Notes under the pieces: model-generated | Database searches by the model: none | Seen by the model: the letters and a program-made list of their open reading frames with translations, nothing else | What the model was told of the DNA's origin: nothing | Position numbers and translations under genes: made by a program | Assembly: GCA_041660605.1 (NCBI GenBank) | Contig: JBAZWB010000001.1 | Location: 265,295 to 329,294 of the forward strand | Direction of reading: 5' to 3' | DNA length: 64,000 bases | Source of the DNA: Patescibacteria group bacterium | Lineage (GTDB): Bacteria; Patescibacteriota; Patescibacteriia; UBA10025; JAHIVO01 | Part shown: positions 1-59,948 of the stretch, in pieces | How the letters are laid out: the number at the start of each line of letters is the position of its first letter | Numbering within the stretch: the stretch's first letter is position 1

Positions 1-1
1 C

Positions 2-3270: not shown

Positions 3271-3423
3271 GCGTCAGAATCGCACTCCGCCTTCCGTTTC
3301 CAAAATTTTCTGAAAACTGCAGGCTGCGTGCGCTTCTTCCTTTCCTCGTCCGCCCATGGGCGGACTCGGTTTTTAATTTTTTAAATTGTCTGCCTAAATC
3401 AAACTATCGCAGTCAGCAAGGAT

Positions 3424-3498: not shown

Positions 3499-3698
3499 TC
3501 GTCAGAATCGCAGTACGCCATCCGCTTACAAAAGATTTTGTAAGCTGCTGGCTCCCTGCGATTCTTCCTCTCCTCGCAGAAAGCTTCGCTTTCTGCTCGG
3601 TTGTAAGAAATAATTCAGGACTTACTTAGGCGGTAATTTATTATGCGTGTTGGGAATTATAAGGTATTTAATGTATTTACGCAAGCTGGCAAGTTGGG

Positions 3699-3773
3699 TG
3701 GTGCCGCCGGTCGGAGTCGAACCGACATGGGAGTAATCCCACACGATTTTGAGTCCCCGCCATTCGGCGGGGC
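3699..3773 (-). pseudogene. tRNA-like element (75 nt, CCA-encoded) with intact T-arm and 3' acceptor strand but no complementary 5' acceptor strand; chimeric with tRNA-Leu(CAA) segments
   Basis: Minus-strand sequence is GCCCCGCCGAATGGCGGGGACTCAAAATCGTGTGGGATTACTCCCATGTCGGTTCGACTCCGACCGGCGGCACCA. The T-arm GTCGG/TTCGACT/CCGAC and CGGCGGC-A-CCA are canonical. The Leu(CAA) anticodon loop GACTCAAAATCG and a degenerate copy of the Leu T-arm are present, but no GCCGCCG 5' strand could be found. Confidence 0.4.
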
Positions 3774-3793
3774 AAGCGTACATGTCAATTTGT

Positions 3794-3880
3794 TGGTGCC
3801 GAAGGTGGGAGTTGAACCCACACGGGCTTGCGCCCATGCGATTTTGAGTCGCACGCGTATGCCAGTTCCGCCACTTCGGC
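3794..3880 (-). tRNA. tRNA-Leu (anticodon CAA), type II with long variable arm
   Basis: Minus-strand sequence is GCCGAAGTGGCGGAACTGGCATACGCGTGCGACTCAAAATCGCATGGGCGCAAGCCCGTGTGGGTTCAACTCCCACCTTCGGCACCA. The 5' end matches E. coli tRNA-Leu (GCCGAAGUGGCG...). Anticodon stem is TGCGA/TCGCA, loop CTCAAAA, variable hairpin GGGCGCAAGCCC, and CCA is encoded. Confidence 0.9.
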
Positions 3881-13611: not shown

Positions 13612-14700
13612 TTAACTGGCGAGCGTGTAATACGCGCCGCCCTGGTGCCGTATCATACCCTTCATTTCCATCATGGTGATGGCGGAATTTGCAATACTGG
13701 TTTTTAGTTTACTCCTCTTTATTAATTCGTCAATATGCAGGGGTTCGTGCGATAAAAATTGCAGTAAAATTTTTTCTTCTTCCGTAGAGCCGATAACTTT
13801 TTTATTCTCTTCATATAATTGCGCCAGCCTGAGGTCGAAGACATCCAGGATATCGCGTGCCGAAGTGACCACATGAGCGCCCATTTTTATGAGATTGTTG
13901 GGCCCGCTGGCGGTTTGGCTGGAAATATTACCGGGCACGGCGAATATTTCCCTGTTTTGATCCAGGGCAAAGCGAGCGGTGATTAATGAGCCGGAATCCT
14001 CGCCCCCCTCGATTACCAGCACGCCCTTGGCCAGTCCGGAGATAATGCGGTTTCTGGCGGGAAAATGCTGTTTTAACGGCTCCGTACCGGGTGGGTATTC
14101 AGATATCAAGGCCCCGTCATTTTTCACGATTTCTTCGCCTAAACTGCGGTTGGTGACAGGATAAATGCGGTCCAGGCCGCAACCCAGCACTGCCACGGTT
14201 TTCTGGCCGGCATCAAGGGCAGCCTGATGGGCCAGGGCGTCTATACCCAGTGCCAGTCCGGAGATTATAATCAATCCAGCCCGGCTGATCTCACCGGTTA
14301 TTTCTGGAGCAATCTGCCGGCCATAAGCAGTGGTTTTTCTGGTGCCGACGACCGCCAGGGACAGATTAAAATTTTCCGGCAGTTTACCTTTTACATATAA
14401 AAGGGCAGGTGCGGAATGGATTTCTTTCAGCAGAGCGGGATATTCCTGATGATGTATAGTAATAACGCGTATGCCTTTCTTTGTCAAATCCTCCCATTCA
14501 GCCTCAGGATTTATTTTACATCTTTCGGTTAATATTTTTTCCACGTCTTTCTGGCCGAGGCCCGCGGCTTTTAATTCAGCGCCAGAGGCCTGCCAAGCTG
14601 CTTCCATAGACGGAAAATGCGCATAAAGAAGTTTGAATTTTTGCGGGCCGAGGCTGTAGATCCTGGAAAAGGCGACCCAGAATTTGGTGTCGTTTGGCAT
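13612..14700 (-). CDS. dprA: DNA processing protein DprA (natural transformation)
   Basis: 362-aa ORF with the DprA Rossmann-like core (LAVVGTRKTTAYGRQIAPEITGEISRAGLIIISGLALGIDALAHQAAL...GCGLDRIYP). Confidence 0.9.
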   Translation of the reverse strand: MPNDTKFWVAFSRIYSLGPQKFKLLYAHFPSMEAAWQASGAELKAAGLGQKDVEKILTERCKINPEAEWEDLTKKGIRVITIHHQEYPALLKEIHSAPALLYVKGKLPENFNLSLAVVGTRKTTAYGRQIAPEITGEISRAGLIIISGLALGIDALAHQAALDAGQKTVAVLGCGLDRIYPVTNRSLGEEIVKNDGALISEYPPGTEPLKQHFPARNRIISGLAKGVLVIEGGEDSGSLITARFALDQNREIFAVPGNISSQTASGPNNLIKMGAHVVTSARDILDVFDLRLAQLYEENKKVIGSTEEEKILLQFLSHEPLHIDELIKRSKLKTSIANSAITMMEMKGMIRHQGGAYYTLAS

Positions 14701-19049: not shown

Positions 19050-20099
19050 CTAATTTTTTTGTTTCATTGCCAGCCCGGCGGCCACGGCCATTTGCGCGCC
19101 AAGTTCCGTCAATTCTTCTTTCAGCTCTGTGGGGTAGGAAATTTTTTTCCAGGGATCAGCCACCTCAGTTTCTATTTTCAGCGTTTCACTGATATAAGCG
19201 GTGAAATTTTTTAATTTGTTGGCTCCGCCCAGTATGATGATTTTTTTCACCGTATCCTGATAATCATGATGATAGCTGGTTATAATCCTCCTTATTTCCC
19301 TGATGACCATATTGTCTATGACGAAGGCCATGGCTTTAGCCACCGGATGGAGGAATTGCGCGCCGGTCGGTAGTCCAATGTCGTCGCGGAATTGCTTGGC
19401 GCGCTCTTCGCTGACATTCAGGGCATTGGCGATATTCAGGGCGATGGTCTCGCCTCCAACATCAATGTTTCTGGTTATGACCGGGATTGTTTTGGAAAAA
19501 AGGGCCATATTAGTATTGGTCGCGCCGATGTCCATCAATAGAATTGGCTCGTCATCGGTGATCAGCGAACGGCGCATGGCCGTAATTTCTGTTTCGGCGC
19601 CGATCAGGGTTAAATCGCACATTTTGAATATCTGCAAATAATTCTCTACCACGTCTTTTGGGGCAGCAGTCAGAATGATATTCAGCTTGTCGGCGGGCTC
19701 GGAGGCATTACGCGCAGGGATTATTTGCCAGCTCAGAGTCACCCTGTCTATCGGCAGCGGCACCATTTTTTTAGCTTCCCAGCGTATGGCTGAGGTTATT
19801 TCCTTGTCCGGCATTTTTGGCAGGGTGATGACGGCATTAAAAACGTTGAGTGCGGAAATCGCCACTACCGATCTGGTAGCGGTGGCTCTGGCTTTTAGCG
19901 TGAGTTCCTTCAGGAGGCCGGCTATCTTTTGCTGGTTTTGGGCCGTATCAAATCGTGTTATTGCCTGGTCCCTTTCAGCGATACCATAGGTCACCAGGCG
20001 GAAACTCTGTTTGTATCTTTCTAGCTCAACGATTTTAATGGCGGACGAGCCAAGATCGACTCCCAGGATTTTTGATTTTTTTTCACCGAAGATTGGCAT
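19050..20099 (-). CDS. pilM: type IV pilus assembly protein PilM (actin-like ATPase fold)
   Basis: 349-aa ORF with N-terminal ILGVDLGSSAIKIVEL and an actin/ASKHA fold, similar to PilM/FtsA-like proteins, placed next to pilT. Confidence 0.8.
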   Translation of the reverse strand: MPIFGEKKSKILGVDLGSSAIKIVELERYKQSFRLVTYGIAERDQAITRFDTAQNQQKIAGLLKELTLKARATATRSVVAISALNVFNAVITLPKMPDKEITSAIRWEAKKMVPLPIDRVTLSWQIIPARNASEPADKLNIILTAAPKDVVENYLQIFKMCDLTLIGAETEITAMRRSLITDDEPILLMDIGATNTNMALFSKTIPVITRNIDVGGETIALNIANALNVSEERAKQFRDDIGLPTGAQFLHPVAKAMAFVIDNMVIREIRRIITSYHHDYQDTVKKIIILGGANKLKNFTAYISETLKIETEVADPWKKISYPTELKEELTELGAQMAVAAGLAMKQKN

Positions 20100-20120
20100 G
20101 AGTTTAAATAAAAATATAAT

Positions 20121-21197
20121 TTACGCCCTGAGCATATAGCTCAGCTGCTGCGGATCGATCGCATATTCCAGAGCATCGTCAATCTGGACCTGGTTTGATT
20201 TCACCAATTCCGCCAGTGACCAGTCCAGAGAAACCATCCCTTCTTCACGCGAGGTTTGGATAATGTTATTTAGCTGATAAAGGGACCCTTCTTTTATCAA
20301 TGACCGGATGGGCGGAGTTGATGTCATTATTTCTGCCACCGCCACCTGGCCGCCGCCGGTGCGGGGTACGAGTTTCTGGCAGATGATGCCTTCCAGATTG
20401 GTTGAAAGCTGGTCCTTGATTTGCTGCTGTTCGTTTGAGGGAAAGCTGTCAATGATGGTTTTCAAAGTTTTGACCACCGTATCGGCTTCGATATCGGCAA
20501 TAACCAGCCGTCCGGAAGAGGAAATTTTTAAAACCTGCTCGATCACTTTTGACGAGGGGAGGTCGGAAACATAGACAATGTTAACGTCCTCCTGGGTAAG
20601 GTTGCTCAGAGCCTGTTCAAATGAAACCGCGTCGCGCCCTACTTCCCTTTGTTCAATAAAGCTTTTTTGGCCGGTGAAGATATGCTCAATCGGCTTTTCT
20701 ATCGATAAGATATAGGTGGAGGCATTTTTATTGATGTAGTCGATAATAGAAGATGAAGTGGTTGATTTTCCGGAACCAAACGCGCCGCTCACCAGCAGCA
20801 GGCCTTTATTTAGGCTGGCCAGTTTTATCAGCGGCTGGAGGGGCAACCCCAATTGATTCAGGGGGACTATCTGGTTGCTGATCAGCCGGAGATAGGCAGC
20901 CAGCGCGCCTTTTTGGAAAAATAAATTAATTCTAAATCTTTCCTGCTTGCCAAATTGATAGGTCAGCACTATTTCTCTGTTTTCCTGCAGGGTGTTTTTC
21001 TGGTCATTATCAAGCAGGGAGTCGATGAAGGTCTCCATAAAATCCTTGCTGATAATATTTTCGTTTTCCAGGGGGATCAGCTTGTTATCTATGCGGATGA
21101 TCGGCGGGCTGCCGACAGAGAGATGCAGGTCAGAGGCTTTTTGCCCGGCCACGGTATTGAGTATATTGTCTATCGCTAATTTATTTTGGGTATCCAT
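20121..21197 (-). CDS. pilT: type IV pilus retraction ATPase PilT-like
   Basis: 358-aa ORF with Walker A GAFGSGKSTT and an AxxA secretion-ATPase core. The length is typical of PilT. Confidence 0.8.
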   Translation of the reverse strand: MDTQNKLAIDNILNTVAGQKASDLHLSVGSPPIIRIDNKLIPLENENIISKDFMETFIDSLLDNDQKNTLQENREIVLTYQFGKQERFRINLFFQKGALAAYLRLISNQIVPLNQLGLPLQPLIKLASLNKGLLLVSGAFGSGKSTTSSSIIDYINKNASTYILSIEKPIEHIFTGQKSFIEQREVGRDAVSFEQALSNLTQEDVNIVYVSDLPSSKVIEQVLKISSSGRLVIADIEADTVVKTLKTIIDSFPSNEQQQIKDQLSTNLEGIICQKLVPRTGGGQVAVAEIMTSTPPIRSLIKEGSLYQLNNIIQTSREEGMVSLDWSLAELVKSNQVQIDDALEYAIDPQQLSYMLRA

Positions 21198-25458: not shown

Positions 25459-25677
25459 GTCGGAATACTATAATATTATTGCTGGTATATTTGATTTGAT
25501 TTTTTCTGATTTTGTGCTATAATGTGGCTAATTCGCTTATTTTTTTTACTTTTTTTGCAAATTTTGCACTTACTAAATTTAAGCAGTCTGAGATGATTCA
25601 GGATGATAATTAATTTATTGACTATCTAGTTGTCAGAATTTGGGAAGCGCGATTTTAGCCCGCCGATTCATATTCGT

Positions 25678-25751
25678 GGGTGATTAGCTCAGCTGGTTAG
25701 AGCGCTATCCTCACACGATAGAGGTCTCAGGTTCAAATCCTGAATCACCCA
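25678..25751 (+). tRNA. tRNA-Val (anticodon CAC)
   Basis: Sequence is GGGTGATTAGCTCAGCTGGTTAGAGCGCTATCCTCACACGATAGAGGTCTCAGGTTCAAATCCTGAATCACCCA. The cloverleaf is canonical, with anticodon loop CTCACAC and no encoded CCA. Confidence 0.85.
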
Positions 25752-25847
25752 TTTATAAAAAATAGACTTTGGGGTTCGTAGCTCCCCATACCATACTCAC
25801 TTTGTTCGTAGGTACGGGGCAAGCAGTTGACTAGAGCGCCACATTGA

Positions 25848-25956
25848 TCCCTCACCTTCCTCTGCGCGTGTAGCTCAGTTGGTTAGAGCGTCACATTGAC
25901 ATTGTGAAGGTCCCAGGTTCAACTCCTGGCACGCGCATGTAGAGGAAGGTGAGGGA
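25848..25956 (+). repeat. perfect 16-bp inverted repeat bracketing tRNA-Val(GAC)
   Basis: tccctcaccttcctct (25848-25863) directly abuts the tRNA 5' end. Its exact reverse complement agaggaaggtgaggga lies at 25941-25956, 3 nt after the tRNA 3' end. This is a processing-stem-like arrangement. Confidence 0.85.
25864..25937 (+). tRNA. tRNA-Val (anticodon GAC)
   Basis: Sequence is GCGCGTGTAGCTCAGTTGGTTAGAGCGTCACATTGACATTGTGAAGGTCCCAGGTTCAACTCCTGGCACGCGCA. The cloverleaf is canonical, with anticodon loop TTGACAT. Confidence 0.9.
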
Positions 25957-29718: not shown

Positions 29719-32700
29719 ATGGGAGGCAGAAATAAAAATAAATTCATTACGGGGGCGGTTGTAGGATTAATTTTCAGCTTAGCGCTGATAGCTATGGCTG
29801 TTTTTGTCCTGCCAAATGCCGTCTCCGCCCAGGCGACTATTAACAGCGAGCTAGGGACGACTTTTGGTTTGGGCACGGCGGGCCTGGAATCGACAGTAAT
29901 AAAGATCGTCCAGTGGGCGCTCGGCTTCCTCGGGCTGATAGCGGTGATCATGATCATCTACGGCGGCGTGGTTTGGATGACCGCGGCCGGCAACACTGAT
30001 AAGGTAGCTAAGGCCAAGAAAATAATCATCCGCGCGGTGATCGGGCTGGTGATTGTTCTCTTAGCCTGGGCGATCGTCATGTTTATCGTTGACAGGATAA
30101 ATAAAGCCACCGGTGGCGGCGGAGATTTTTGCGATCCTCATTATTTTGGACCAAATTGGCCGGCTGACGCGGAGGTACGCTCGGACGGCTGTGCCTATTG
30201 CAATGAAAGCGGTACCGGCTGGATAGTTATCCCTGGCTGCGTCACTTTGCCGGATACCGACACTTTCCGCGTCAAATGGGTGGATCCGACTGACGGCGAA
30301 CATGACGTGCCTTTGTGCAGCATCGTGCAGGCCAAGTTGAACGGTAAAGTTGTGCCCGCTTCCATCGCTGGTAATGTTGGGCTGTATGTTAACGGTGCCA
30401 CGGCTAAAGGTGGCGATGCGTGTCTTGCCAACAATGAATGCATGTCTGGCGTTTGCGATATTGGCGGCACTAACCAGTGCGTGGGCGATGAAGTCGCCGG
30501 CAACTGGCAGGTTTCACCTGACCAGACAATCATAGAATTTTTACCGGCTACCGATTATCTGGAGAATCAGTGGTACCGGGCGGAATTGAGGAGAAATACC
30601 CCAGGGAATCCGGTTATTATCCAGGAAGACGCCGCTGATCCGCGTGATTTCGTAACTAAAATATGGATGTTTACTACCGGCATTACGACTTTGGATGTGC
30701 CTCCGACCGTGACTACAATATATCCAGCTGATGGTGAAGATAAAATTTGTTTGAACACCGCCATCCAGTCAATATTTTCCAGTAAAATGCGGGCCGCTTC
30801 AATGAACGCCAGTACTATAAAATTGGCTGAGGCCGGGACAGGAGATTACGGAATTAACATTAACGATCATACAAGTAATTCTTTTTCCGGCCGTCCGGCC
30901 AAACTTTTAAACGCCGGTAAAGAGTATAATGTTACTTTAACTGCCGGAGACCCCGGGAATAATGATCCGAATAACGGTGTTATGGACGTTTGTCTGAATC
31001 ATCTTGATGGCGATGCGGATACTGTTGAAGAAGGCACGGCCGGTGGCGATAATTTCCTTGAAACGGTACCGCCAAGCTCCAATCCCACCTTTACGGATGC
31101 GCCCTGGAATTTCTTAGCTGATACTGACACTACCAATGATAAATGCATACCGGAAATAACCGACATTGTGCCGGCTAATGGCAAATATGATAGCACCGCG
31201 GTAGATATACAGGGCGTGAATTTTGGTATTATTGGTTTCACCTATTTTAATAAAGGAGTAATTAATGCAGGGAATTGTTTTGACGGGGGGGGATGGCCTA
31301 GATTAGAATGCGTCAACAGCTGGTCGGGCAATAATATAAACATTCACGTGCCTGGCGGTCCGATCAACGGCGGCCAGAAAGCAGTGCCGTATAACGGCGC
31401 GGCCGATGGGCCGGTATCCGTGGAAGTGGCTGGCAAAACCAGCAACAATTGGACTTTTGACGTAGCCAGCCCGCAAATATTAAAAGCCATCGGCTTTAAA
31501 AACAATCGCCACGGCGGTACTGACCAGTATGTTACCCTGATCAGCCGTTCTGATACTGACGGTGGTTTCGGTGATAATACAGGTACGGTGGTTTTCCGGA
31601 GTTTTCAGCCTCCCTACAATGTGGTTACTGCGCCTTTCCCTCCTGATCCGCCTTGTGACGCCTCCTGGGCTAATGACCAGGTGATTATTAAAGTACCTGA
31701 TCTGACAGCCACGCTAGGCGTTCCCGCTTGCCCGGTGGCCGGACCCGCTGACTGGGTAAGTTGCCTGAATACTCCTTCCATGGTGGGTATTCAGCTTATC
31801 AGGAACGGAGGTGATCGTAGCAATATAGTTAATTTTGTCTATACTAATGAAGAAGCCGGTCCGGGTTTGTGCGCCATTCAGCCGCAGCAATGCGGTACGG
31901 GCGGTGAGACCGTAACTGCGGTGGGCCAGAAATTTCTTGCTCAGACTCCTGCGAGCCGAGTGCATTTTTCCGCCATCCAAGCAGTAATAAATAGCTGGAC
32001 ATTGAACCTGGTGACCGGAGACAGCGCGCAGGTTACTGTGCCAAGCCTTGATAACGCTGAAGATTATCTGGTGACGGTTTCAAATTCCGTTGGCACAAGT
32101 AACCCCTTGCTCTTTGACGTACCGTGCGGCCTGATACCAAAAGTGGTGGAAGATTCCTCCTGCGAAAATTATTGCCAGCTTGATCCTACCCTTAAGGGCT
32201 GTACTGAAGACATAGACTGCGGCGTTTCCGGTCCCTGCGTCACCGGCATTTCCTCGCCAAATCCGTATAAAGGCAATACTGACGTCTGCGTCAATGTTAA
32301 CGCCGCGGCGTCTTTTAATACTCTGATGGACGACGCCATGCTGACTGACGGCAATCTGGTCTATCTGCAGAAATGCAATGATGATAATTGCTCGGATGTG
32401 GATCCGGCCAAGGTGGCAGGCGCTTTGTCGGTATTTATCATTGACCCCACTCACGAAGGCGTTGAGTTCAATCCGGCTGTTAACCTTGATCCCTCAACAA
32501 CATACCAGATGACTATCCAGAAAGAAGTGCAGAGCGAGGCTGGCGCGCACATGAATAATGATTACAAGTGGCATTTCAAAACTAAAGACAGCATTGAACC
32601 CTGCCCGGTGGAGAAAGTGGTAGTTGCTCCGAACAGCGCGATTTTATATAATCTTGGAGACACTCAGAATTATTCCAGCTTAGCCCAAGGTCCGAACTGC

Positions 32701-35700
32701 ACCATCTTAGATCCCAACGACTATACCTGGGCCTGGACTTCGGAGGATTTTGGAATTGCCAGTGTTCCGGTGCCCAGCAGCATAACGCGAAATGAAATCG
32801 CCACCGCTACCGGCCTAGGCACTACTTATATAAAGGCCAGCATTCCCGCGGAAAGCAAGAGCGGCCGGGGCAGGCTGAAAGTTGATCCGGAATCCTGCGC
32901 TTTTAATCCTGATCCTGGTTACTGTGCTAACCCCGGTGGCGGTGTAACCTGTCCAGGCAGCTGGTGCGATTTACTGGCTGACAAATGCATGCCGGTGATT
33001 ACTGAGCGATCCATACCGCCGGATATACCGCCGAAGGAAATCACTCCACCCCAGGGACCAGCGGGCACTACGGTTTCTATTGAAGGCTGCTGGTTTGGCA
33101 GTAAAACCGGTCAGGTGATTATTGACCAGGCAGCAACTTTTGAATGCAGTAATTCCTGGTCAAGTAATTTGATCGTGGCGACTACTGATCCCTTAATTCC
33201 TACTGGTAATAAGCCGGTGGAAGTATTGACAGCTTACGGCCGATGCAACGGCGGCGACAGAGACGGCCGGTTATGCACGGTGGTAGGAGAATGTCCCGGA
33301 GCCGCGTCATGCGATAAATTTTCCAATATGATTGACAGCGGTCAAAGCGGAGCGCTTAGTAAAAATTTTAATGTTACTGACAGATGTTCCGGATATTGCG
33401 ATCCTAACATCAGCCCGGCGGAATTTGCCAATGCTCCTTGCGTTGATGATAGTAATTGCGATAATGTCCCCCTCAGCTGCAAGAAAGTGCTTCCGACCGG
33501 CGGCATACCGGGTATTTGCCCGCCTTTACAGCCGTCTGCGGGACCGGAGCTGACGCATGTATATATTGAAGGCTTTAATCTTTTGCCTGATAACGCGCAG
33601 ACTGTAGATGATTTGGTTTATTATCCACGAGGTAAGTCAGACACTCGTGATGATATAATTTTTTCATATTTGGAAAAATGGACCGGTACGGCTATCGATA
33701 GAAGCCGTGTGCCGGTTGGCGCGGAATCCGGCGCGGTTAACGTGCTGGTGGACAACTGCCCCTCAAATTCTCTGCCTTATGCCGTGACCTGCACTAACAA
33801 CATCCAGTGCGGTACGGGCTGCTGCGCTGATCCCGGCACGGGCCAGAAGATGTGCCTGCCTTTTGATCCATATTGTCTGTCTGGTACCATGCAGCCATGC
33901 CAGATAGAAGAAAATACCGACACTCCGGAATCTCCCGAAAATCCCAACTGCACTTCCGGCCAGATCTGGAATCCGGGTAATTATATGTGTATCAGTACCA
34001 CAGGCGATACTTCTCATGAATTTCCGGCACCGCCAGAAGATGCCACGCATCTATTCGGTACCGACTGCCGCGTGTGCTGCGACGCCAATCCGCCGCAGGT
34101 GTCAGCTTCAGGCTTGACCTGCCGCGCGGACAAAGGCGACTGCAGCGGCACCGAGCGCGGATTGTATTGCGGCTGTGACCCTGCAATTCCCGGCCAATGC
34201 GGAGCGGGCTTCGGCTGCAGCGCCAAAGACACCTGCTGCTATCCGGAACCCGTCATTGATCATGTCATACCTGATCCGTTAGCGGGCAATCTGCTCTGCA
34301 CCAACGTGGTTATCCGGTATTACTTCAATGAAGTCATGGATACGGAGACCATGAATACCGCCAATATTATAGTAACTGATGGCACAGATCCAATCGCCGG
34401 AAAAATAGATATCCATAAAAATAAAAAGGGTTTTGGTTTTGTCGCGGATAAACCGTACACACCCGGCCAGCAGGTGCATATCGAGGTAACGACCAATGTC
34501 AAGAATAAATACGGCGTGGGCATGGCGGGTTCTGATTCCAGGATTTGGACTATTGATCCGGCCGCGTCCCTCTGCGCCATTAACCAGATTGATTTTACGA
34601 TCATTACCACCGGCGCGCCGCCGACTTATGATCCGCCGGACGTGTTTCGCTGCGCCACGGATAATTGCAGCGGAGACATGGATCCCGCGCCGGGTACGGG
34701 CAACGAGCATGGCATCACGGCCTATGCCTATGATAAAAGAGGCCTGGAAGTGGCAGCTACCTATCAGTGGCAAGAAGAAGATGACGCGAATGTTATTGCC
34801 ATTGACCAATTGGCCGTAGGCACTGATAACGCTATCACCGCGCAACCCAATAATGGCAAAGCTAACATAGTAGTGACGGCTACCGAGCAGTACGTTGGCG
34901 ATTCGAAACTAACCGATAAGGCCAGAGTCAGCGTGATGCTGTGCGAAAAACCCTGGCCCAATCCGTATGCGCCGGAAATGGATCAGTTTCCTTTTGAGGA
35001 TTCTGACCGCAATCCGCCGGCTACCTGGAAACCGGACACCATTTTCCATACAAATAATTTTATTGCTAATTACAGCATCTGGTATTGCCGCGATTCCGGC
35101 AATCCGCCTTTATTAGAGCGCACTGATCAGGTAACAGTCCGTGACGGCTCGCCGACGGATCCGGACATAGTCAAGGAATACTTTTTCCTCAGGCCTGGCA
35201 CCAGTACGGACGGCATCGGCATTATTGTCGCCGACAATCCTGATAATAAATCTCCGGAGCAATGGTATCGGGATAAATTCGGCGCGGCCGCACCAGCGCC
35301 CCAGAGTCTGACAGTGGACGGCTATCCGGCGGTCAGAGCCGGCCGTACCGTTTATGTCGGCGTGCCGAACCTGGTAGGCGGAGCATTCCATCAATATATA
35401 TATTTATTATCTCATGACCAGGAGGCTTCAGATGAAACGCTGGATATCTACAACCGCCTGCTGGCCAATTGGGAGTTTAATGTTAATGTTGATCCGGCAC
35501 AAAAGGCAGCTTTGCAGCGCGATTTGCAGAGAATCAATAGCTTGGAGGAAATTTACGGCAAAATGCTGGCTTATAAGAATAAAAATGGCTTTTTCCCCAA
35601 ACTTGAAGGCGGTTCGTATATCCAGCATTTGTCCAATTCCAAATGGCCTTCCTGGCAGGAGACGCTGGGGTCCAGCATTAACAGTCTGGGCTTTATACCG

Positions 35701-38700
35701 CATCAGGCGCCGTTCCTGGAAAAACTACGCGGTTTATTTGTTAAAAACGCGGTCGCCCAATCCGGCCTGGCCGTTGATCCGTTGAATAAATTTGATTTGC
35801 CCGACCCCTCGCTGCCCCCGCAGTGCCTGGAGGACAACGGATTTAACCAGGATACCTGCTGGAATGAAACAAAACATTTGTATGAATGTCCGGCCAATTC
35901 AAATATTTACCAATATATGGTGGATGCCAATGGCGACAATGCCGCGCTCTATGCCCGGATGGAATACAGCGGTGCCGATAGTTTTGCAAATTATTTTGGG
36001 GGCGATCCTTGTACCGGCATAACCGGCGCCACCTGCAACTGCTTTAATTATGTATTGGGCGTAACCGGCAATCTGGCTGATCACGAAGGTCCGGAAATCC
36101 AGGGGGTGGACGCCTTGGGGGCCGGTGTGAACTGGATCAGCAGCACCCGGCCACTGGGCGTGTTAGTCGTTGACAAGCCAGACCTTAATCCCAGCGGCGT
36201 CAACCGGGTGGAATTTTTCGTTGACGGCATTAGGAAATTCACGGACAGCGACGGCACTGGTCCGGGCTGGTCCTGGGATTTCGTTTCCACGCAGTATGCC
36301 GACGGCGACCATAAGATTTCTGTGACTGCCTACGATAATGTTGGTAACTGGACCACGAAAAATTATGACATTAAAATCGACAATTCCAGCGGAGCGGATA
36401 CTACCGATCCCTTCATCGCCATCGCCCGGCCGGGAAACGGCGCTTCGGTCAGCGGCAAAGTCATCATTGAAGCGCAGGCCAGCGATAACCAGGTGCTGGC
36501 GCAGGTGCAGATTTCAGTTGAGGGCGCTTCGGCTAACTGGGTCTGTCCTGGCGGCGGTTCAAGCATGACCTGTACGACAGCCATCCCGAATCACTGGAAC
36601 ACCGCAGCACTTGACGCTGATGGCAAATATATCTATCCCAATGGCGAATATACCATCAACGCCACGGCCACAGACGCAGCCGGCAACAGCCGCACTGCCA
36701 GCATAAAAGTGAAAGTAGCCAACAGCGATTATACCGCACCATCCGTTGTTTTGACCGCGATATATAACGGCGGTCCGGATCATTGGAATAATGGAGATGT
36801 CATACCTGGCGCTATTGCGTACGCCCAGGGTCCGGGCGAGGTGTGGGTCTGGGTGATACCTACTGACGACCAGGGGGCTGACCAGTTCTACAAGCCCGGT
36901 CGCGTGAAATTCTACGTTGATGGCATCTATCGCGCTGACGGGTCAAATGATAATGGCGACCAGGTGTGGGAATGGGCGCCATGGAACACCCTGGAATACT
37001 CCAACGGACTGCATGAACTGACCGTCTATGTTTATGACGACGCGGGCAATATGGCCAGCGATACCTGGTATATTACGCTGAATAACGCTCAGTCAGACAT
37101 GGAACCGCCGGTAGTTAATTTTAGAAATGCCAAATCCAATCCAACAGGGAGAACGCTTTTAAATGGCCAGCCAGCTACGCAAATCATATATATTGATGCC
37201 AGCGCTTCAGATAATATCGGCGTTACAAAAGTTTATTTTTATCGCGATTATATATTGCGATCCGAGGTCATTGTTCCGGATCCAATGACAGGCTACTCCT
37301 GGATGGTTGATACTAATGCAATTTCGCCGGGTTGGCATACTTTTCAGGTGGACGCGGAAGACGCGGCGGGAAACCGCAGCGACGCCATTGAGATACGCCT
37401 GAATATCGGCGGCGGCGGCGCTCCAATTTGCGGCGACGGCATCATTACCAACTTTACTGTTCCGCCGGAACAGTGCGAGCTGATCGGCTACACCCCGCCG
37501 CCTGATAATCAGCCTATTTACAGCATGAACGGCGAGACCTGTAAAACATTGGGCTATGGCTGCGGCACCCTGGGATGCAATCCGCCCCTCTCCGCTAATG
37601 AGTGCCAGTTTGATGTTAGCCAATGCAAAAACTCCGTTTGCGGTGACGGTAAGATCGAGTGCGGCGAAACCTGTGAAAGTGTATCGGACTGCCCGGCCGC
37701 GCCTAATGCTTGTTCTACTATTAATTGCAATAGTTGCGACTGCTCTTACGATCAGAATTGCACCAACGCGCCGGGGTGCGAGCCTGGTACCCTTACCTGG
37801 TGCGCCAACTGCAACCACTGCAACAATAAGATCAAGGATTGCGATGAAACAACCACGGATTGTGGCGGCGCCATGTGCCCGACCTGCGGATGCACGCCAG
37901 GAAACCAGCGATGTACAGTAACCTCACAGACGCAGGTCTGCAATAACCTCGGCGTCTGGGTAAATGAAGCGCAAACCCTGCCTACCTGTACTGCCCCGCC
38001 TAGTTATCCTTTCTGGCAGGGCGATTGTAATTTGGGCTCAACATCAGGTTGCTATTCTGGCACTGTTTGTAAAACCTCGGGAGCTACCGATGCTCACTGC
38101 GAAAGTAATCAGGCCATACAATGTACTGCAGCCTGCCAGACTGGTTGGTCACTGGCTTATAACCAGTGTTGCGTCACCCAGCGATGTAATACCGGCCCAC
38201 CTCTACACACGGAGAAATTTGTAAGCGGTTCCTGGGTTGATGAACCCCAGGGTACACCAATTTGCAGTATGGCCAATGGGGCCAATTGGGATGGAAATTG
38301 TGTTATGGGTAATAGCTGCTACAACACTACAATCGGTTGTATGATGACTGGCGGCGGAACAGATGCTAAGTGCGTGAATACAAGCGTCAACCCATTCCAA
38401 TGCGTGGCCGCTTGCCAGAGTTCATTTCTAGCCGCGTATAACCAATGCTGCGCCGTATGCGTTGACGGCACAAAGCAGGATTGCGGCGCTACGAATACTG
38501 ATGTTGGCGAATGCAATATCGGCGAGCAGACCTGCGTCAGCGGCGCCTGGGGACCCTGTACCGGCGAAATTCCTTCGTCGCCGGAAATTTGCACTGGCGG
38601 CAAGGATGAGGACTGCGACGGCGCTATTGATGCTGCGGATACGGATTGCGCCATGCAGTGCAATCAAGCCTGCAACCCGCCCAGTATAAATTGCGCCAGC

Positions 38701-39771
38701 CCCTTGATCTGCAGCAGCGGTTTATGCCGCAACAGCGCCTGCCCTCTCCAAACTGATTGTATTTGCCCTACTATTCTATATACTATTACGCTGACCTGGA
38801 GCGGGACCACGGATCTTGACCTCAATTTATTGAGAAGCGATCTCAAGCGCTGGTACTGGGGGCACCCTGACATTGATGAAGGCATAGATTGGAATAATAT
38901 TAACTCTAATACGGAGGTTATAGAAATAACTGCAGAACAAAGCAGTTATCCTAACGATTTTCAAATACTCATACAGAATAGCGCCGTACCAACAGCGATG
39001 ATCCCCAGCGGTACGAGGGTGGATATTATGGATAATATACGCAGTTTGACTTATACTTATAATTCTCCGGATATGTGCCGCAGCAACAGCAGTCCTATCT
39101 GGCAGGTCGGTGAATTTAATTTCAGTGGTGGCGTTACACCAAATGTCAGCAATGCCTATATGCCCGCGCCTTTCCCGGCCACTTATCCCAGCGTGCCATA
39201 TCAGCAAGCTTCAGGCTCTTGCTGCGCTAATATAACCCAATGTCAGTCAGGGCTCTGCTGTAATGGTGGCTCGCCAGGTGTCTGCGGCGCCTGCTCCTCT
39301 TGTTTTGCTAACAATGGTTCCTGCGAAGTGGCACCGGGTTATTCCTGTGATGAGGTGAAGGACTATAGTGATCCGGATAATAAAGACTGCAAACAGAATT
39401 TTATAGATTGCAAAACTTGGTGTAGCGATAATTATTGCGACAGCATGGGAAATTGCACTGGATTTCTGGTCAGGATGACATATCCGGTTGCGACATATCA
39501 ATATGAACCGGGGAAATGCTATGATCCGTGGAGAAGCGGTGACCCTCAGGATCAATGTTATATTAGTATGGCTTGTGGCGGATATGCTTTTTATGGGCCG
39601 AATAATGAAGCGACGCAATGTTGCCACCCAGCCTCGACTAATCCACCTGGAACTCCGCTTGGTTATGGATGTTATTGCGGACGCGATGTACCGGTTGGCC
39701 CGCCTGTGGATCCAAATCCAGAATGTTTAATCGCCAGTTGCAATGGTCCGAACCTATATGTTTGCGAATAA
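29719..39771 (+). CDS. giant (3350 aa) Cys-rich cell-surface protein; N-terminal VirB2/TrbC pilin-like membrane domain, central Ig/beta-rich region, C-terminal Cys-rich repeats
   Basis: The single uninterrupted ORF is GC-richer than its neighbours. The N-terminus has a signal-anchor plus two hydrophobic helices split by a short basic loop (IYGGVVWMTAAGNTDKVAKAKKIIIRAVIGLVIVL). The C-terminal ~700 aa hold CGDG cysteine-rich repeats, CDGxDxDCDG-type motifs and a ~91-aa Cys-rich unit repeated about 2.5 times (DNA ~37900-38480). Antisense ORFs inside the gene are spurious. Confidence 0.9.
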   Translation: MGGRNKNKFITGAVVGLIFSLALIAMAVFVLPNAVSAQATINSELGTTFGLGTAGLESTVIKIVQWALGFLGLIAVIMIIYGGVVWMTAAGNTDKVAKAKKIIIRAVIGLVIVLLAWAIVMFIVDRINKATGGGGDFCDPHYFGPNWPADAEVRSDGCAYCNESGTGWIVIPGCVTLPDTDTFRVKWVDPTDGEHDVPLCSIVQAKLNGKVVPASIAGNVGLYVNGATAKGGDACLANNECMSGVCDIGGTNQCVGDEVAGNWQVSPDQTIIEFLPATDYLENQWYRAELRRNTPGNPVIIQEDAADPRDFVTKIWMFTTGITTLDVPPTVTTIYPADGEDKICLNTAIQSIFSSKMRAASMNASTIKLAEAGTGDYGININDHTSNSFSGRPAKLLNAGKEYNVTLTAGDPGNNDPNNGVMDVCLNHLDGDADTVEEGTAGGDNFLETVPPSSNPTFTDAPWNFLADTDTTNDKCIPEITDIVPANGKYDSTAVDIQGVNFGIIGFTYFNKGVINAGNCFDGGGWPRLECVNSWSGNNINIHVPGGPINGGQKAVPYNGAADGPVSVEVAGKTSNNWTFDVASPQILKAIGFKNNRHGGTDQYVTLISRSDTDGGFGDNTGTVVFRSFQPPYNVVTAPFPPDPPCDASWANDQVIIKVPDLTATLGVPACPVAGPADWVSCLNTPSMVGIQLIRNGGDRSNIVNFVYTNEEAGPGLCAIQPQQCGTGGETVTAVGQKFLAQTPASRVHFSAIQAVINSWTLNLVTGDSAQVTVPSLDNAEDYLVTVSNSVGTSNPLLFDVPCGLIPKVVEDSSCENYCQLDPTLKGCTEDIDCGVSGPCVTGISSPNPYKGNTDVCVNVNAAASFNTLMDDAMLTDGNLVYLQKCNDDNCSDVDPAKVAGALSVFIIDPTHEGVEFNPAVNLDPSTTYQMTIQKEVQSEAGAHMNNDYKWHFKTKDSIEPCPVEKVVVAPNSAILYNLGDTQNYSSLAQGPNCTILDPNDYTWAWTSEDFGIASVPVPSSITRNEIATATGLGTTYIKASIPAESKSGRGRLKVDPESCAFNPDPGYCANPGGGVTCPGSWCDLLADKCMPVITERSIPPDIPPKEITPPQGPAGTTVSIEGCWFGSKTGQVIIDQAATFECSNSWSSNLIVATTDPLIPTGNKPVEVLTAYGRCNGGDRDGRLCTVVGECPGAASCDKFSNMIDSGQSGALSKNFNVTDRCSGYCDPNISPAEFANAPCVDDSNCDNVPLSCKKVLPTGGIPGICPPLQPSAGPELTHVYIEGFNLLPDNAQTVDDLVYYPRGKSDTRDDIIFSYLEKWTGTAIDRSRVPVGAESGAVNVLVDNCPSNSLPYAVTCTNNIQCGTGCCADPGTGQKMCLPFDPYCLSGTMQPCQIEENTDTPESPENPNCTSGQIWNPGNYMCISTTGDTSHEFPAPPEDATHLFGTDCRVCCDANPPQVSASGLTCRADKGDCSGTERGLYCGCDPAIPGQCGAGFGCSAKDTCCYPEPVIDHVIPDPLAGNLLCTNVVIRYYFNEVMDTETMNTANIIVTDGTDPIAGKIDIHKNKKGFGFVADKPYTPGQQVHIEVTTNVKNKYGVGMAGSDSRIWTIDPAASLCAINQIDFTIITTGAPPTYDPPDVFRCATDNCSGDMDPAPGTGNEHGITAYAYDKRGLEVAATYQWQEEDDANVIAIDQLAVGTDNAITAQPNNGKANIVVTATEQYVGDSKLTDKARVSVMLCEKPWPNPYAPEMDQFPFEDSDRNPPATWKPDTIFHTNNFIANYSIWYCRDSGNPPLLERTDQVTVRDGSPTDPDIVKEYFFLRPGTSTDGIGIIVADNPDNKSPEQWYRDKFGAAAPAPQSLTVDGYPAVRAGRTVYVGVPNLVGGAFHQYIYLLSHDQEASDETLDIYNRLLANWEFNVNVDPAQKAALQRDLQRINSLEEIYGKMLAYKNKNGFFPKLEGGSYIQHLSNSKWPSWQETLGSSINSLGFIPHQAPFLEKLRGLFVKNAVAQSGLAVDPLNKFDLPDPSLPPQCLEDNGFNQDTCWNETKHLYECPANSNIYQYMVDANGDNAALYARMEYSGADSFANYFGGDPCTGITGATCNCFNYVLGVTGNLADHEGPEIQGVDALGAGVNWISSTRPLGVLVVDKPDLNPSGVNRVEFFVDGIRKFTDSDGTGPGWSWDFVSTQYADGDHKISVTAYDNVGNWTTKNYDIKIDNSSGADTTDPFIAIARPGNGASVSGKVIIEAQASDNQVLAQVQISVEGASANWVCPGGGSSMTCTTAIPNHWNTAALDADGKYIYPNGEYTINATATDAAGNSRTASIKVKVANSDYTAPSVVLTAIYNGGPDHWNNGDVIPGAIAYAQGPGEVWVWVIPTDDQGADQFYKPGRVKFYVDGIYRADGSNDNGDQVWEWAPWNTLEYSNGLHELTVYVYDDAGNMASDTWYITLNNAQSDMEPPVVNFRNAKSNPTGRTLLNGQPATQIIYIDASASDNIGVTKVYFYRDYILRSEVIVPDPMTGYSWMVDTNAISPGWHTFQVDAEDAAGNRSDAIEIRLNIGGGGAPICGDGIITNFTVPPEQCELIGYTPPPDNQPIYSMNGETCKTLGYGCGTLGCNPPLSANECQFDVSQCKNSVCGDGKIECGETCESVSDCPAAPNACSTINCNSCDCSYDQNCTNAPGCEPGTLTWCANCNHCNNKIKDCDETTTDCGGAMCPTCGCTPGNQRCTVTSQTQVCNNLGVWVNEAQTLPTCTAPPSYPFWQGDCNLGSTSGCYSGTVCKTSGATDAHCESNQAIQCTAACQTGWSLAYNQCCVTQRCNTGPPLHTEKFVSGSWVDEPQGTPICSMANGANWDGNCVMGNSCYNTTIGCMMTGGGTDAKCVNTSVNPFQCVAACQSSFLAAYNQCCAVCVDGTKQDCGATNTDVGECNIGEQTCVSGAWGPCTGEIPSSPEICTGGKDEDCDGAIDAADTDCAMQCNQACNPPSINCASPLICSSGLCRNSACPLQTDCICPTILYTITLTWSGTTDLDLNLLRSDLKRWYWGHPDIDEGIDWNNINSNTEVIEITAEQSSYPNDFQILIQNSAVPTAMIPSGTRVDIMDNIRSLTYTYNSPDMCRSNSSPIWQVGEFNFSGGVTPNVSNAYMPAPFPATYPSVPYQQASGSCCANITQCQSGLCCNGGSPGVCGACSSCFANNGSCEVAPGYSCDEVKDYSDPDNKDCKQNFIDCKTWCSDNYCDSMGNCTGFLVRMTYPVATYQYEPGKCYDPWRSGDPQDQCYISMACGGYAFYGPNNEATQCCHPASTNPPGTPLGYGCYCGRDVPVGPPVDPNPECLIASCNGPNLYVCE

Positions 39772-39800: not shown

Positions 39801-40343
39801 ATGACACAACAAAACATTCCATCAGAGCAGAATGAACAAAAGCAGAAGCCTATTTATCTATGGTTTTTAATGGGTTTGCTTGTCTTGGCCTTGCTTGGCG
39901 GCGGCGGTTATTTGTACTATAAATATGCCAATAAGCCAAATGATAACGCTAATAAAGCTAATGTGAATGGGGCGGTAGTTGCGGAAAAGCACCTTTTAAC
40001 CGCCGAGGACAAGGAGCAATACGGCATCCAGGCCAATCTCAACGGTGAAATTACATATACTAATGTTAACGGAACTCTGATACCCAGTATTGTCATAGAT
40101 CCAAACTCACGTCCGCTTGATACTGATGGCGACCGGCTATCTGATGAAGAGGAAGCCACCCAAAAAACAGATCCCAATAATCCCGATACCGATGGCGACC
40201 TGATATATGACGGCGATGAGGTGTTGGTCTGGAAAACTGATCCCGCTAAGGCCGATACTGACGAGGACGGTTTTGATGACGGTGCGGAGGTCAAAGGAGG
40301 CTACAATCCTCTGGGTACCGGCCTGTTGAATACCGCCCAGTAG
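39801..40343 (+). CDS. membrane-anchored protein with thrombospondin-type-3-like Ca-binding repeats (paralog 1 of 3)
   Basis: The track ORF 39669..40343 starts inside the giant gene. The likely start is the M of MTQQNIPSEQ...KPIYLWFLMGLLVLALLGGGGYLYY (single TM). Repeats follow (DTDGDRLSDEEE, DPNNPDTDGDLIYDGDE, DPAKADTDEDGFDDGAE) and the protein ends GGYNPLGTGLL. Confidence 0.7.
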   Translation: MTQQNIPSEQNEQKQKPIYLWFLMGLLVLALLGGGGYLYYKYANKPNDNANKANVNGAVVAEKHLLTAEDKEQYGIQANLNGEITYTNVNGTLIPSIVIDPNSRPLDTDGDRLSDEEEATQKTDPNNPDTDGDLIYDGDEVLVWKTDPAKADTDEDGFDDGAEVKGGYNPLGTGLLNTAQ

Positions 40344-40425: not shown

Positions 40426-41019
40426 ATGCCAAATAATAAACCGATAGAAGATATTTTTGAGGAAGTGGATAAAAGCAAAACACCAAAAAACGGTAAAATA
40501 AAGAACGGAGCAAGAAAACCGAAGCTGGCCCCGCTCGCGCCCCAGTCATTGCCGCCCCTTCAGCCAGAATCCAGGAATACGAAATTGCCGGTGAAAATTA
40601 TTATTTTGGTAATAATCATAATAGTGCTGGCAGGCGGCGGGTATTTTGTTTATAATTATCTGGCTAATCGCGCTGAGGATGATCCGGTAAATGCCGCTAA
40701 CAACAGCGCCGTTCAGCCGGCGACTAACCAGCCGGTGAATTCAGCAGTGCCGGCGATTAATGCCAATACTGCTCAGGATACGGATGGCGACGGGTTGACG
40801 GATGCCGAAGAGAAAGACCTGGGCACCGATCCAAAAAATAAAGACACGGATAATGACGGCCTCTTTGACAGGGAAGAGGTCAAGGTTTATAAAACCGATC
40901 CTGATAATCCGGACACCGACGGTGACGGCATTAAGGACGGCCAGGAAGTTAAGAATGGGTACAATCCGAATGGCCCGGGGAAGTTATTGGATCTGAATTC
41001 AGCTAAAAATAATATTTAA
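40426..41019 (+). CDS. membrane-anchored protein with thrombospondin-type-3-like Ca-binding repeats (paralog 2 of 3)
   Basis: 197-aa ORF with the TM anchor IIILVIIIIVLAGGGYFVYNY. Repeats DTDGDGLTDAEEKDLGTDPKNKDTDNDGLFDREE...DPDNPDTDGDGIKDGQE follow, ending GYNPNGPGKL. Confidence 0.75.
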   Translation: MPNNKPIEDIFEEVDKSKTPKNGKIKNGARKPKLAPLAPQSLPPLQPESRNTKLPVKIIILVIIIIVLAGGGYFVYNYLANRAEDDPVNAANNSAVQPATNQPVNSAVPAINANTAQDTDGDGLTDAEEKDLGTDPKNKDTDNDGLFDREEVKVYKTDPDNPDTDGDGIKDGQEVKNGYNPNGPGKLLDLNSAKNNI

Positions 41020-41032: not shown

Positions 41033-42193
41033 ATGGCAGTGCAGGAAAAAAATAATGAAGCGCGTCCGGCAGAACCGGTAAAGCAAGTACGCATCCATAC
41101 CATGCCCAGCAAGTTTTATCTGGACGAAAACAAGTCGGGCAGCGGTAAGAATATTTTTTTAGTGGTTTTTCTCATAATTTTGGCTGTTCTGGTGCTTGGC
41201 GGCGGAGGGTATTTCGCCTATACTAGCTTTTATCAGAATAAAAATCAGAACTCAAATGCCAATTCATTGGCCAATGAAAATGAAGAGGGTGACTTGAATG
41301 ACACCAATAGTTCAGCGAATGCCAATGGCAATAAAAATGCCAATACAAACGGCTCTAATACAAATAATGCCAATAGAACTAATGTAAATGCGGTAGATAT
41401 TAATTCGCTGAATATTTTCAATAATTTGAACCAAAATACCAATACCGGCAATTTTAACATCAATACGGTGGTTAGCAGCGCTGACGCGGATTTAGACGGC
41501 CTGTCGGACGTAGAAGAGCCGATTTACAGTACCAAGATCTCTTCAGCCGATTCTGACGGTGATGGGTTTAGTGACGGCCAGGAAGTCATAAACGGCTATA
41601 ATCCCAACGGTACTGGCAAGCTGGAGCTGAATGCCGGCGTTCTGCGCTATACCGATACAGACGAGAAGTATTCGTTGCTATATCCGAAAACCTGGGTTGT
41701 CAGCGATGACAACCAGACGTCCAGCGGCAAGATTTTTAGCGCTAACGGGCAATTCGTAACCATCAGCGTGGAGCTGAATGCCGCGAAATTATCAGCCCGC
41801 GACTGGTACCTGACCAAGTCGCCAGGAATTGATTCCTCCCGCATTCAGTCAGTCACTAACTGGGACGCGACTTTGGCTGGCGTCAAAAGCATTGACGGGC
41901 TGACCGTTTATTACACGAAGAACGACCAGACATTCATTATCAGCTACAATATAAATATTCTTACTCAGGCTGATTATCTGACCACCTTCGCAATGATGTA
42001 TAAAAGTTTTACGCTGGTGACGGCTAATTTTGTAAATAGTAACGCCAATTCAAATTCTAATACCAGTACGAATTTTAATTTTAATACGAATATTAATACC
42101 AATACAAACAGGAATACAAACTCAAATTTAAATTCTAACGCCAATACAAATAGAAATACAAATTCAAACTCAAATTCAACAAATCACCTATAA
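41033..42193 (+). CDS. membrane-anchored protein with thrombospondin-type-3-like Ca-binding repeats plus extra C-terminal domain and Asn-rich tails (paralog 3 of 3)
   Basis: 386-aa ORF with the TM anchor FLVVFLIILAVLVLGGGGYFAY. It has Asn-rich low-complexity segments, the repeats DADLDGLSDVEE...DSDGDGFSDGQEVINGYNPNGTGKL, and a ~150-aa C-terminal domain. Confidence 0.75.
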   Translation: MAVQEKNNEARPAEPVKQVRIHTMPSKFYLDENKSGSGKNIFLVVFLIILAVLVLGGGGYFAYTSFYQNKNQNSNANSLANENEEGDLNDTNSSANANGNKNANTNGSNTNNANRTNVNAVDINSLNIFNNLNQNTNTGNFNINTVVSSADADLDGLSDVEEPIYSTKISSADSDGDGFSDGQEVINGYNPNGTGKLELNAGVLRYTDTDEKYSLLYPKTWVVSDDNQTSSGKIFSANGQFVTISVELNAAKLSARDWYLTKSPGIDSSRIQSVTNWDATLAGVKSIDGLTVYYTKNDQTFIISYNINILTQADYLTTFAMMYKSFTLVTANFVNSNANSNSNTSTNFNFNTNINTNTNRNTNSNLNSNANTNRNTNSNSNSTNHL

Positions 42194-59940: not shown

Positions 59941-59948
59941 ATAATTTT

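Follow-up and report, generated by a model that had tools for sequence, protein, structure and literature searches.

A VirB2-like pilin module heads a conserved family of giant surface proteins in Patescibacteria

A giant gene lies in the chromosome of an uncultured Patescibacteria group bacterium, between a histidyl-tRNA synthetase cluster and the cell-division genes. We analysed 64,000 nucleotides of assembly GCA_041660605.1 (contig JBAZWB010000001.1, positions 265,295 to 329,294, forward strand; hereafter the window). A single uninterrupted open reading frame (ORF) at 29719..39771 (+) starts with ATG and encodes 3350 amino acids (aa). An earlier reading of the sequence alone (the original prediction) had given this 10-kb ORF the same coordinates and length, and had described a giant cysteine-rich surface protein with an N-terminus like a VirB2/TrbC-type pilin. 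Signal peptidase I (SPase I)-HisRS-HIT-S21-YqeY precede the giant, and TSP3 proteins-YbeY-DAGK-FtsA-FtsZ follow it. The window as a whole is ordinary Patescibacteria chromosome, with genes for ParA/ParB, TopA, DprA, Mfd, PilM, a T2SSE ATPase, Der, LytR, HisRS, FtsA/FtsZ, RNR, GlnA, RF, GlmS and a split ComEC. Its RNAs are five tRNAs, with no other RNA family. Feature coordinates are collected in Table 1.

Amino acid composition, not foreign ancestry, accounts for the base content of the gene. GC content is 0.50-0.54 inside the gene against 0.44-0.46 in the flanks, so the gene is GC-richer than its neighbours, as originally noted. At third codon positions (GC3) the value of 0.534 equals that of neighbouring genes (0.52-0.585), and at second positions (GC2) it is 0.48 versus 0.31-0.42. 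The excess thus sits in GC2 while GC3 is native, which reflects a composition rich in Gly, Ala, Pro, Thr and Cys. A foreign origin, suggested by the high GC, is ruled out by the native GC3 and codon usage. Cysteine contributes 170 residues (5.1%), with peak density at aa 2601-3000. Hydropathy analysis of the whole protein found three hydrophobic segments (aa 7-41, 58-92 and 96-130) and no others; hydropathy and motif scans found no LPXTG-like motif, C-terminal anchor or hydrophobic segment after aa 130. An exact sequence look-up of the protein returned no record.

At the level of sequence family, the N-terminus is a PF18895 pilin module. The PF18895 profile (T4SS_pilin, after the type IV secretion system, T4SS) covers aa 58-123 (nt 29890-30087), scoring 44.2 bits on the whole protein, 47.9 on aa 1-400 and 50.9 on aa 1-135, above its gathering cutoff of 26.6 bits. 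The predicted VirB2/TrbC-type N-terminus was thereby borne out: profile searches assigned this segment to T4SS_pilin, not to a plain signal peptide or transmembrane anchor. A hidden Markov model (HMM) made from stand-alone pilins alone scored 141 bits on the giant over HMM positions 11-126, and the NCBIfam Mbov_0395 model of pilin-like conjugal transfer proteins scored 28 bits, under its cutoff of 40. With aa 1-226 as query, all 120 matches listed were small proteins (124-351 aa) carrying PF18895, several of them also annotated with PF04956 (TrbC/VirB2). The best were stand-alone Patescibacteria pilins of 124-130 aa with 60-69% identity. PF18895 matches 103 of 103 free pilins, and PF04956 also matches 33 of the 103 (best 5.6e-8). 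Free pilins extend past the domain by a median of 2 aa, so the ectodomain of the giant starts exactly at the normal end of a pilin. Each of the 12 invariant or near-invariant free-pilin residues is kept in the giant: L68, G83, W86, T88, A89, G91, A99, K100, A106, I108, G109 and L110 (window numbering).

The module is predicted to fold as a helical hairpin behind a signal peptide. AlphaFold2 (AF2), a check proposed with the original prediction, was run with a pilin alignment and modelled helices at aa 9-38, 56-88 and 93-130, with a confident hairpin (predicted local distance difference test score >89 over aa 61-130). The module comprises a helix at aa 56-88, a turn at 89-92, a Lys-rich stretch at 95-101 and a helix at 93-130. 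The turn reads TAAGNTDKVAKAKK at aa 88-101; aa 88-102 hold four K/R against one D/E, and the segment aa 38-59 has no K/R at all. Under the positive-inside rule, this distribution argues for a hairpin with its loop in the cytoplasm and both termini outside, as in VirB2/TraA propilins. Hydropathy and AF2 thus recovered the predicted pair of hydrophobic helices with a Lys-rich turn, but the segment before them, originally read as a signal-anchor, is better read as a cleavable Sec signal peptide. It ends in AVSA/QA (slash, putative cleavage site), and orthologues carry AWA/QV and TQA/QV at the same position.

The pilin fusion is kept in orthologues at the same locus. We retrieved the loci of relatives from four related Patescibacteria genomes, using the neighbouring HisRS gene as query. 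In L002 and L003, ORFs of 2730 and 2769 aa directly follow SPase I-HisRS-HIT-S21-YqeY; both open with this signal peptide and pilin module and can be aligned collinearly to aa 1-2580 of the giant at 37-40% identity. A single-cell genome (L004) holds a third orthologue that runs off the contig end, and in L005 the locus of the giant is occupied by two pilin-headed genes in tandem. At least six other Patescibacteria assemblies have a pilin-headed giant here (L002, L003, L004, L006/L007, L010, L011). Further relatives preserve the surroundings to different extents. P0152 (34% identity) lies in the order Mfd-Pth-Der-LytR-GT2-SPase-HisRS-HIT-(79-aa ORF at the S21 position)-YqeY-giant-TSP3-...-YbeY-DAGK-FtsA-FtsZ-NrdR-RNR. 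P0137 has the same locus frame plus an extra 853-aa pilin-Big_5 gene ahead of the giant, and the gene for P0145 (5369 aa, Parcubacteria) stands after YqeY, with HisRS, RF and GlmS downstream. Relatives are also carried on the long contigs JBMOKY010000001.1 (1.15 Mb), ERZ27249683 k141_56429 (387 kb) and Ga0265297_10000003 (963 kb). The same fusion at the same locus in independent assemblies indicates that it is old, vertically inherited and under selection.

Pilin-headed giants form a large family. An exhaustive phmmer search with aa 1-1200 against 1.84 billion cluster representatives returned 242 at E<=1e-30. The free-pilin HMM detected an N-terminal pilin domain in 145 of the best 150 of these 242 relatives (648-5369 aa, median 2226), so the predicted fusion holds in the family as it does in the orthologues. 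Source names of the relatives include 'Ig-like domain-containing protein', 'DUF2341 domain-containing protein' and 'cysteine-rich repeat protein', and none mentions pilin. A scan of genome contigs with the giant itself gave no match, and word-indexed searches with aa 126-900 and aa 1628-2134 gave one weak match each. The word-indexed search scores only the 8000 candidates sharing most words; its near-empty results therefore reflect an index limit for low-complexity queries rich in immunoglobulin-like (Ig-like) domains and are not evidence of uniqueness.

An independent metagenome sample contained both free and fused pilins. Eighty loci picked by pilin motif yielded 271 pilin-domain ORFs, 253 with a complete 3' end. 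Free pilins made up 197 of the 253, and 21 carried at least 300 extra residues, seven of these at least 1000. A pilin fusion of 600-850 aa often stood directly upstream of a giant in this sample. Likewise, many related genomes have a mid-sized (577-853 aa) pilin-headed protein directly upstream of the giant as a tandem pair, while the window, L002, L003 and L006 have the giant only.

Family members share a core design. Tiling the giant against the best 150 relatives revealed shared blocks at the pilin module (145/150), at aa ~800-1100 (126-128/150) and at aa ~1700-2100 (106-116/150), and many members of 1,500-2,050 aa terminate right after the last block. The shared blocks and these endpoints point to a core of pilin module, Ig-like stalk (Big_5/TIG) and C-terminal head. 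The head, ~480 aa, is the C-terminal end of the protein in many relatives. The window protein adds a Big_13/Big_7 array and a Cys-rich tail, the latter without counterpart in its orthologues, and distal modules are highly variable between orthologues.

The ectodomain combines Ig-like domains with Cys-rich sequence. Three Big_5, three TIG and several Big_7/Big_13 domains account for the Ig-like or beta-rich segments originally predicted, and no catalytic or enzyme fold was found in the ectodomain. The structural model of the head holds an Ig-like sandwich, a PsbP/Mog1/LpqN-like alpha/beta domain, and then a long helix and sheet like a type IV pilin head; the order of these fold matches along the head is suggested by the order of secondary structure. 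Domain-model scans of the giant found no SLH or other wall-binding domain. Within the tail, two tandem Cys-rich units align with a score of 150, where shuffled sequences average 36 (z = 16), but alignment gives no support for a third copy (z about 1 against shuffles), so that a unit predicted as ~91 aa and repeated about 2.5 times is reduced to two copies. Self-BLAST and Tandem Repeats Finder detected no repeats in the protein or gene, including any DNA-level tandem repeat. The other Cys-rich motifs of the original prediction were overstated or absent: CGDG occurs only twice in the whole protein (aa 2571 and 2641), and the strict CDGxDxDCDG motif has no instance, only DEDCDGAIDAADTDC near aa 2960.

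Conservation in these proteins is highest in the pilin module. Mean identity to the window protein across 137 comparable relatives is 50% for the module and 27% for the alignable ectodomain, a contrast that is partly compositional, since hydrophobic helices inflate identity; the module is the more conserved of the two in 137/137. Among 146 giants, G83, G91 and G109 are kept in 100%, L68, A99 and I108 in 95-97%, and W86, T88, K100 and L110 in 89-92%, while A89 is A or S and A106 mostly A or G. These 12 positions are equally conserved in the 146 giants and the 103 free pilins, and no position separates the groups. For 145 of 146 giant-borne modules, the best match is another giant rather than a free pilin. 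Sharing the residue constraints of free pilins argues against a drifting inert anchor. Together with the module being the most conserved part, it suggests that the same helix-helix contacts may be made as in free pilins, with free pilins themselves or with their machinery. By this sequence evidence, the module is probably more than an inert anchor.

Table 1. Coordinates of the giant gene, its parts, neighbouring features and related loci. Positions refer to the 64-kb window unless a locus handle precedes them.
Feature	Residues (aa)	Coordinates	Strand	Basis or remark
Whole gene, 3350-aa pilin-anchored giant surface protein	1-3350	29719..39771, including stop codon	+	ORF; collinear syntenic orthologues L002, L003, L004
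Probable Sec signal peptide (basic n-region, h-region, AVSA/QA)	1-37	29719..29829	+	Sequence, hydropathy, AF2 helix 9-38
VirB2-like pilin module	38-130	29830..30108	+	PF18895, stand-alone-pilin HMM, identity, invariant residues, AF2 hairpin
Big_5 Ig-like domain 1	~327-410	30697..30948	+	Pfam
TIG/IPT-like domain, weak	~478-580	31150..31458	+	Pfam, just under cutoff
TIG/IPT domain	720-799	31876..32115	+	Pfam
Big_5 Ig-like domain 2	844-955	32248..32583	+	Pfam; inside family-wide conserved block aa ~800-1100
TIG/IPT domain	1107-1170	33037..33228	+	Pfam
Big_5 Ig-like domain 3	1511-1605	34249..34533	+	Pfam
Family-signature head	1640-2134	34636..36120	+	No Pfam or PDB sequence match
Big_13/Big_7 Ig-like array	2185-2544	36271..37350	+	Pfam
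Cys-rich C-terminal region, lineage-specific	2570-3350	37426..39768	+	Absent from orthologues
Two tandem ~92-97-aa Cys-rich units	2725-2821, 2822-2913	37891..38457	+	Direct alignment
Three downstream genes, single-pass membrane proteins with extracellular Ca-binding bacterial TSP3 repeats		39801-40343, 40426-41019, 41033-42193	+	
tRNA cluster, two tRNA-Met(CAT) and tRNA-Leu(CAA)		3197-3880	-	
Two adjacent tRNA-Val (CAC, GAC)		25677-25938	+	
Upstream mid-sized pilin-headed genes		L005 12353-14086; L011 6979-9540; L053 7970-9985; L090 7765-9879		
Further upstream mid-sized pilin-headed genes		L081 1113-3101; L056 2391-4457; L044 9941-11827; L063 4084-6336		
Cassettes of free pilins most like the module of the giant		L001 6316-12412; L008 5712-12576; L009 5828-12533		

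TSP3_bac genes lie directly downstream of the giant in distant relatives (L006/L007, L011) as in the window, and this conserved adjacency makes the downstream TSP3 proteins possible partners of the giant. One of these TSP3 proteins is PsbP-like; its homology to the head is not supported (hhalign, 25 aligned columns, 10% probability). The closest free pilins (P0001, P0012, P0004) occupy a conserved array, NTP_transferase-SBP_bac_1-(pilin + 300-480-aa ectodomain)-1-3 free pilins-DUF2079, in which one of the pilin-ectodomain fusions carries PG_binding_1. Amidase_2 proteins (N-acetylmuramoyl-L-alanine amidase) of ~780 aa adjoin large free-pilin arrays of 8-10 pilin ORFs, and such wall-hydrolase neighbours might have a VirB1-like role. 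At one of the loci a modular type IV pilin of 614 aa (N_methyl + CarboxypepD_reg) is present. The array neighbours concerned are at L079 1981-4335, L045 192-2513 and L058 1781-3622.

The rest of the window includes competence and type IV pilus genes. DprA, PilM, a T2SSE-family ATPase and ComEC are scattered at 13612-14700 (-), 19050-21197 (-) and 58435-60992 (+), ComEC being split into two adjacent genes, the first with Competence and DUF4131 domains and the second with a metallo-beta-lactamase domain. An 808-aa protein at 8891-11317 (-) has a spermine/spermidine synthase domain at aa 520-642 as its sole Pfam match.

We lean towards reading the protein as a giant adhesin anchored in the membrane by a functional PF18895 module, a 'modular VirB2-like pilin', and hold this with a little better than even confidence. 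The protein would be exported through Sec, and signal peptidase I would probably remove aa 1-37. The helices at aa ~56-88 and 93-130 would insert as a hairpin, with the Lys-rich turn in the cytoplasm and both ends outside. Such a topology would place the remaining ~3,200 residues outside the cell as an Ig-like stalk, a head of binding folds like those of PsbP/LpqN and of pilin heads, further Ig domains and a disulfide-rich, lineage-specific tail. The ectodomain would project from the monoderm cell and could bind a partner or host surface, and the pilin module may make pilin-type helix-helix contacts, either within the membrane or as part of an extruded filament.

Several observations weigh against a functional pilin module and against adhesion. 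The 64-kb window contains no VirB4, VirB6, VirB3, VirD4 or free pilin, and no pilin-domain ORF besides the giant. The search for VirB4/VirB6 and free pilins advised with the original prediction was run on the window and on the loci of relatives; it found no T4SS gene or free pilin within 10 kb of any giant relative examined. No VirB4/VirB6 or other T4SS genes lie within 10 kb of the closest free-pilin arrays either. In a partial sample of ten large ORFs beside other free-pilin arrays, VirB4 was found in 0/10 and the ORFs encoded amidases, a penicillin-binding protein, PMT_2, an EccB-like protein, a P-type ATPase and others. PF04956 (TrbC/VirB2) does not match the window giant at E<=1 or E<=0.01. 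A profile search of the PDB with the pilin alignment returned spurious repeat matches (designed 'Pizza' proteins) and a non-significant VirB2 match, and comparison of the hairpin fold with solved VirB2/TraA pilins does not discriminate. The compositional share of the identity contrast counts here too. A review credits PF18895-type systems only with a 'potential to elaborate conjugative pili' and reports no experimental pilus (PMC12857230). Adhesion itself is suggested by domain types only. The structural half of the original prediction, a pilin domain fused to a giant protein, therefore stands; with no VirB4/VirB6 or free pilin near the giant or its relatives, T4SS-pilus display is unproven, and display or co-assembly stays an inference somewhat weakened by context.

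A true pilus subunit would behave differently, and we consider it rather unlikely. A VirB4-type T4SS would extract the module and polymerise it with free pilins, placing the giant at the tip or sparsely along the filament. The shared residue constraints and 60-69% identity to free pilins fit such a role. In the F-pilus structure, a VirB2/TraA-type hairpin points its C-terminus to the outside, and topology thus allows a graft at that end. VirB4 and VirB2-like pilin arrays are widespread in Patescibacteria and essential in Southlakia (PMC12102498; PMC10633639), and modular type IV pilins such as PilB offer a precedent in logic (PMC8179133). The arrangement would parallel that of modular type IV pilins located at the tip. 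However, T4SS genes were not found near the giant, its relatives or the closest free-pilin arrays, a 3,200-aa load per subunit excludes a homopolymer, and no free pilin was found in the window. A review records no pilus built from PF18895 proteins (PMC12857230), and the modules of giants cluster with one another.

The module could also be an inert anchor, an unlikely case in our judgement. A two-helix anchor and export signal would then have been co-opted from a pilin gene without any pilin partner, leaving an ordinary giant adhesin. The position of the gene among housekeeping and cell-division genes, not secretion genes, agrees with this, and the same module on many ectodomains (PG_binding_1, Big_5 proteins of 300-850 aa) would fit a generic anchor. 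Plain anchors drift fast, however, yet the residues of the module are 100% or ~90-97% kept beside ectodomains of ~27% identity. A structural envelope protein, meaning an S-layer-like or wall-spanning scaffold tethered to the membrane instead of an adhesin for host recognition, is improbable: no SLH or wall-binding domain was found, its S-layer similarities are generic Ig folds, and the variability of distal modules between orthologues is what a partner-recognition surface would be expected to show. An artefactual or recent accidental fusion (sequencing or assembly error, stop-codon loss) might have been suspected from free pilins stopping exactly at the junction and from the uniformly small matches to the N-terminus, but is ruled out because separate studies assembled this fusion independently at one and the same locus (L002, L003, L004, L006/L007, L010, L011) and because it recurs in 145 further cluster representatives.

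The giants combine traits of several known systems. VirB2-like pilins (PF18895; NCBIfam Mbov_0395/MMCAP2_0565) share their signal peptide, two hydrophobic helices, short basic turn, invariant residues and phylum. Known members differ in being ~100-170 aa, often arrayed and frequently near virB4 (PMC12102498), whereas the giant carries ~3,200 extra residues, is single at its locus and has no T4SS neighbour that we found. Classical TrbC/VirB2/TraA pilins (PF04956; F, RP4 and T pili) are built on the same hairpin of two helices, with both termini outside; PF04956 matches one in three of the closest free relatives of the giant but not the giant itself.

Modular type IV pilins follow a comparable plan with an unrelated module. 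Streptococcus sanguinis PilB and PilC join a small polymerisation or anchor module to a C-terminal binding graft (Raynaud et al. 2021, PMC8179133). Such proteins are widespread and architecturally diverse, also in the candidate phyla radiation (CPR), with a largest cited example of 860 aa (PMC8179133). They belong to a different pilin superfamily, with a class III signal peptide, a single N-terminal helix and type IV pilus (T4P) machinery, whereas the giants have a VirB2-like module and a graft of up to >5,000 aa. The N_methyl/T2SSG model did not match the N-terminus of the giant, which begins MGGRNKNKFITGAVVG... without a class III signal peptide motif.

Other large surface proteins resemble the giants in their extracellular parts. 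According to the accessible portions of their descriptions, Vampirococcus lugosii membrane proteins and Omnitrophota giant genes are likewise multi-thousand-residue and rich in Ig or adhesion domains, and have been proposed for host attachment (PMC8080830; bioRxiv 10.1101/2023.11.21.568195). Those portions mention no VirB2-like pilin anchor, and link the Omnitrophota giants to loci like those of the type II secretion system or T4P (bioRxiv 10.1101/2023.11.21.568195). PrgB-type adhesins of Gram-positive T4SSs and extended VirB6 proteins also tie large extracellular parts to T4SS cell-cell contact (PMC12857230; PMC12102498). PrgB is LPXTG/sortase-anchored, unlike the LPXTG-less giant, and VirB6 is polytopic and unrelated; no PrgB-like adhesins have been detected in Patescibacteria (PMC12102498).

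What appears new here is that pilin-headed giants make up a large family with conserved synteny and a conserved head; pilins, modular pilins and giants were each already known. Small VirB2-like pilins and pilin arrays are known in Patescibacteria, with an essential array in Southlakia (PMC12102498; PMC10633639; PMC12857230). In the open-access literature searched, no paper describes giant proteins headed by a VirB2-like module. A Patescibacteria T4SS survey counts all PF18895 hits as 'VirB2', and the accessible part of its supplement gives HMM coverage and no protein length. Surveys that count in this way probably include giant fusion proteins.

A tentative extension of the preferred reading, possible though less than probable, is that the PF18895 hairpin serves as a general polymerisation or display module, with free pilins and giants co-assembling in a filament or membrane array. 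Such an assembly, whether made by a T4SS or by some machine not yet known, would display adhesins of several thousand residues to the host, and the giants would then be the first natural 'modular conjugative-type pilins'. Ca. Southlakia epibionticum is the only genetically tractable Patescibacterium, and VirB2-like arrays and the T4SS are essential in it (PMC12102498; PMC10633639). Relaxases and coupling proteins are usually absent (PMC12102498; PMC12857230; PMC10633639). Co-assembly could explain why VirB2-like arrays are essential in an epibiotic lifestyle despite these missing components.

One pilin module thus heads a large, vertically inherited family of surface proteins of 650-5,400 aa and, with aa 1640-2134, a new conserved head domain is defined. 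The evidence is computational throughout, and should the hairpin turn out to be inert, the gene would amount to no more than a giant adhesin that is well conserved. Neither the giants nor the closest free-pilin arrays lie beside virB4, which suggests that the primary job of the module may be to anchor or present surface proteins. Its main role in the phylum may accordingly be surface-protein display rather than the building of DNA-transfer pili. The giants are concrete candidate host-attachment determinants in a phylum where such determinants are largely unknown.

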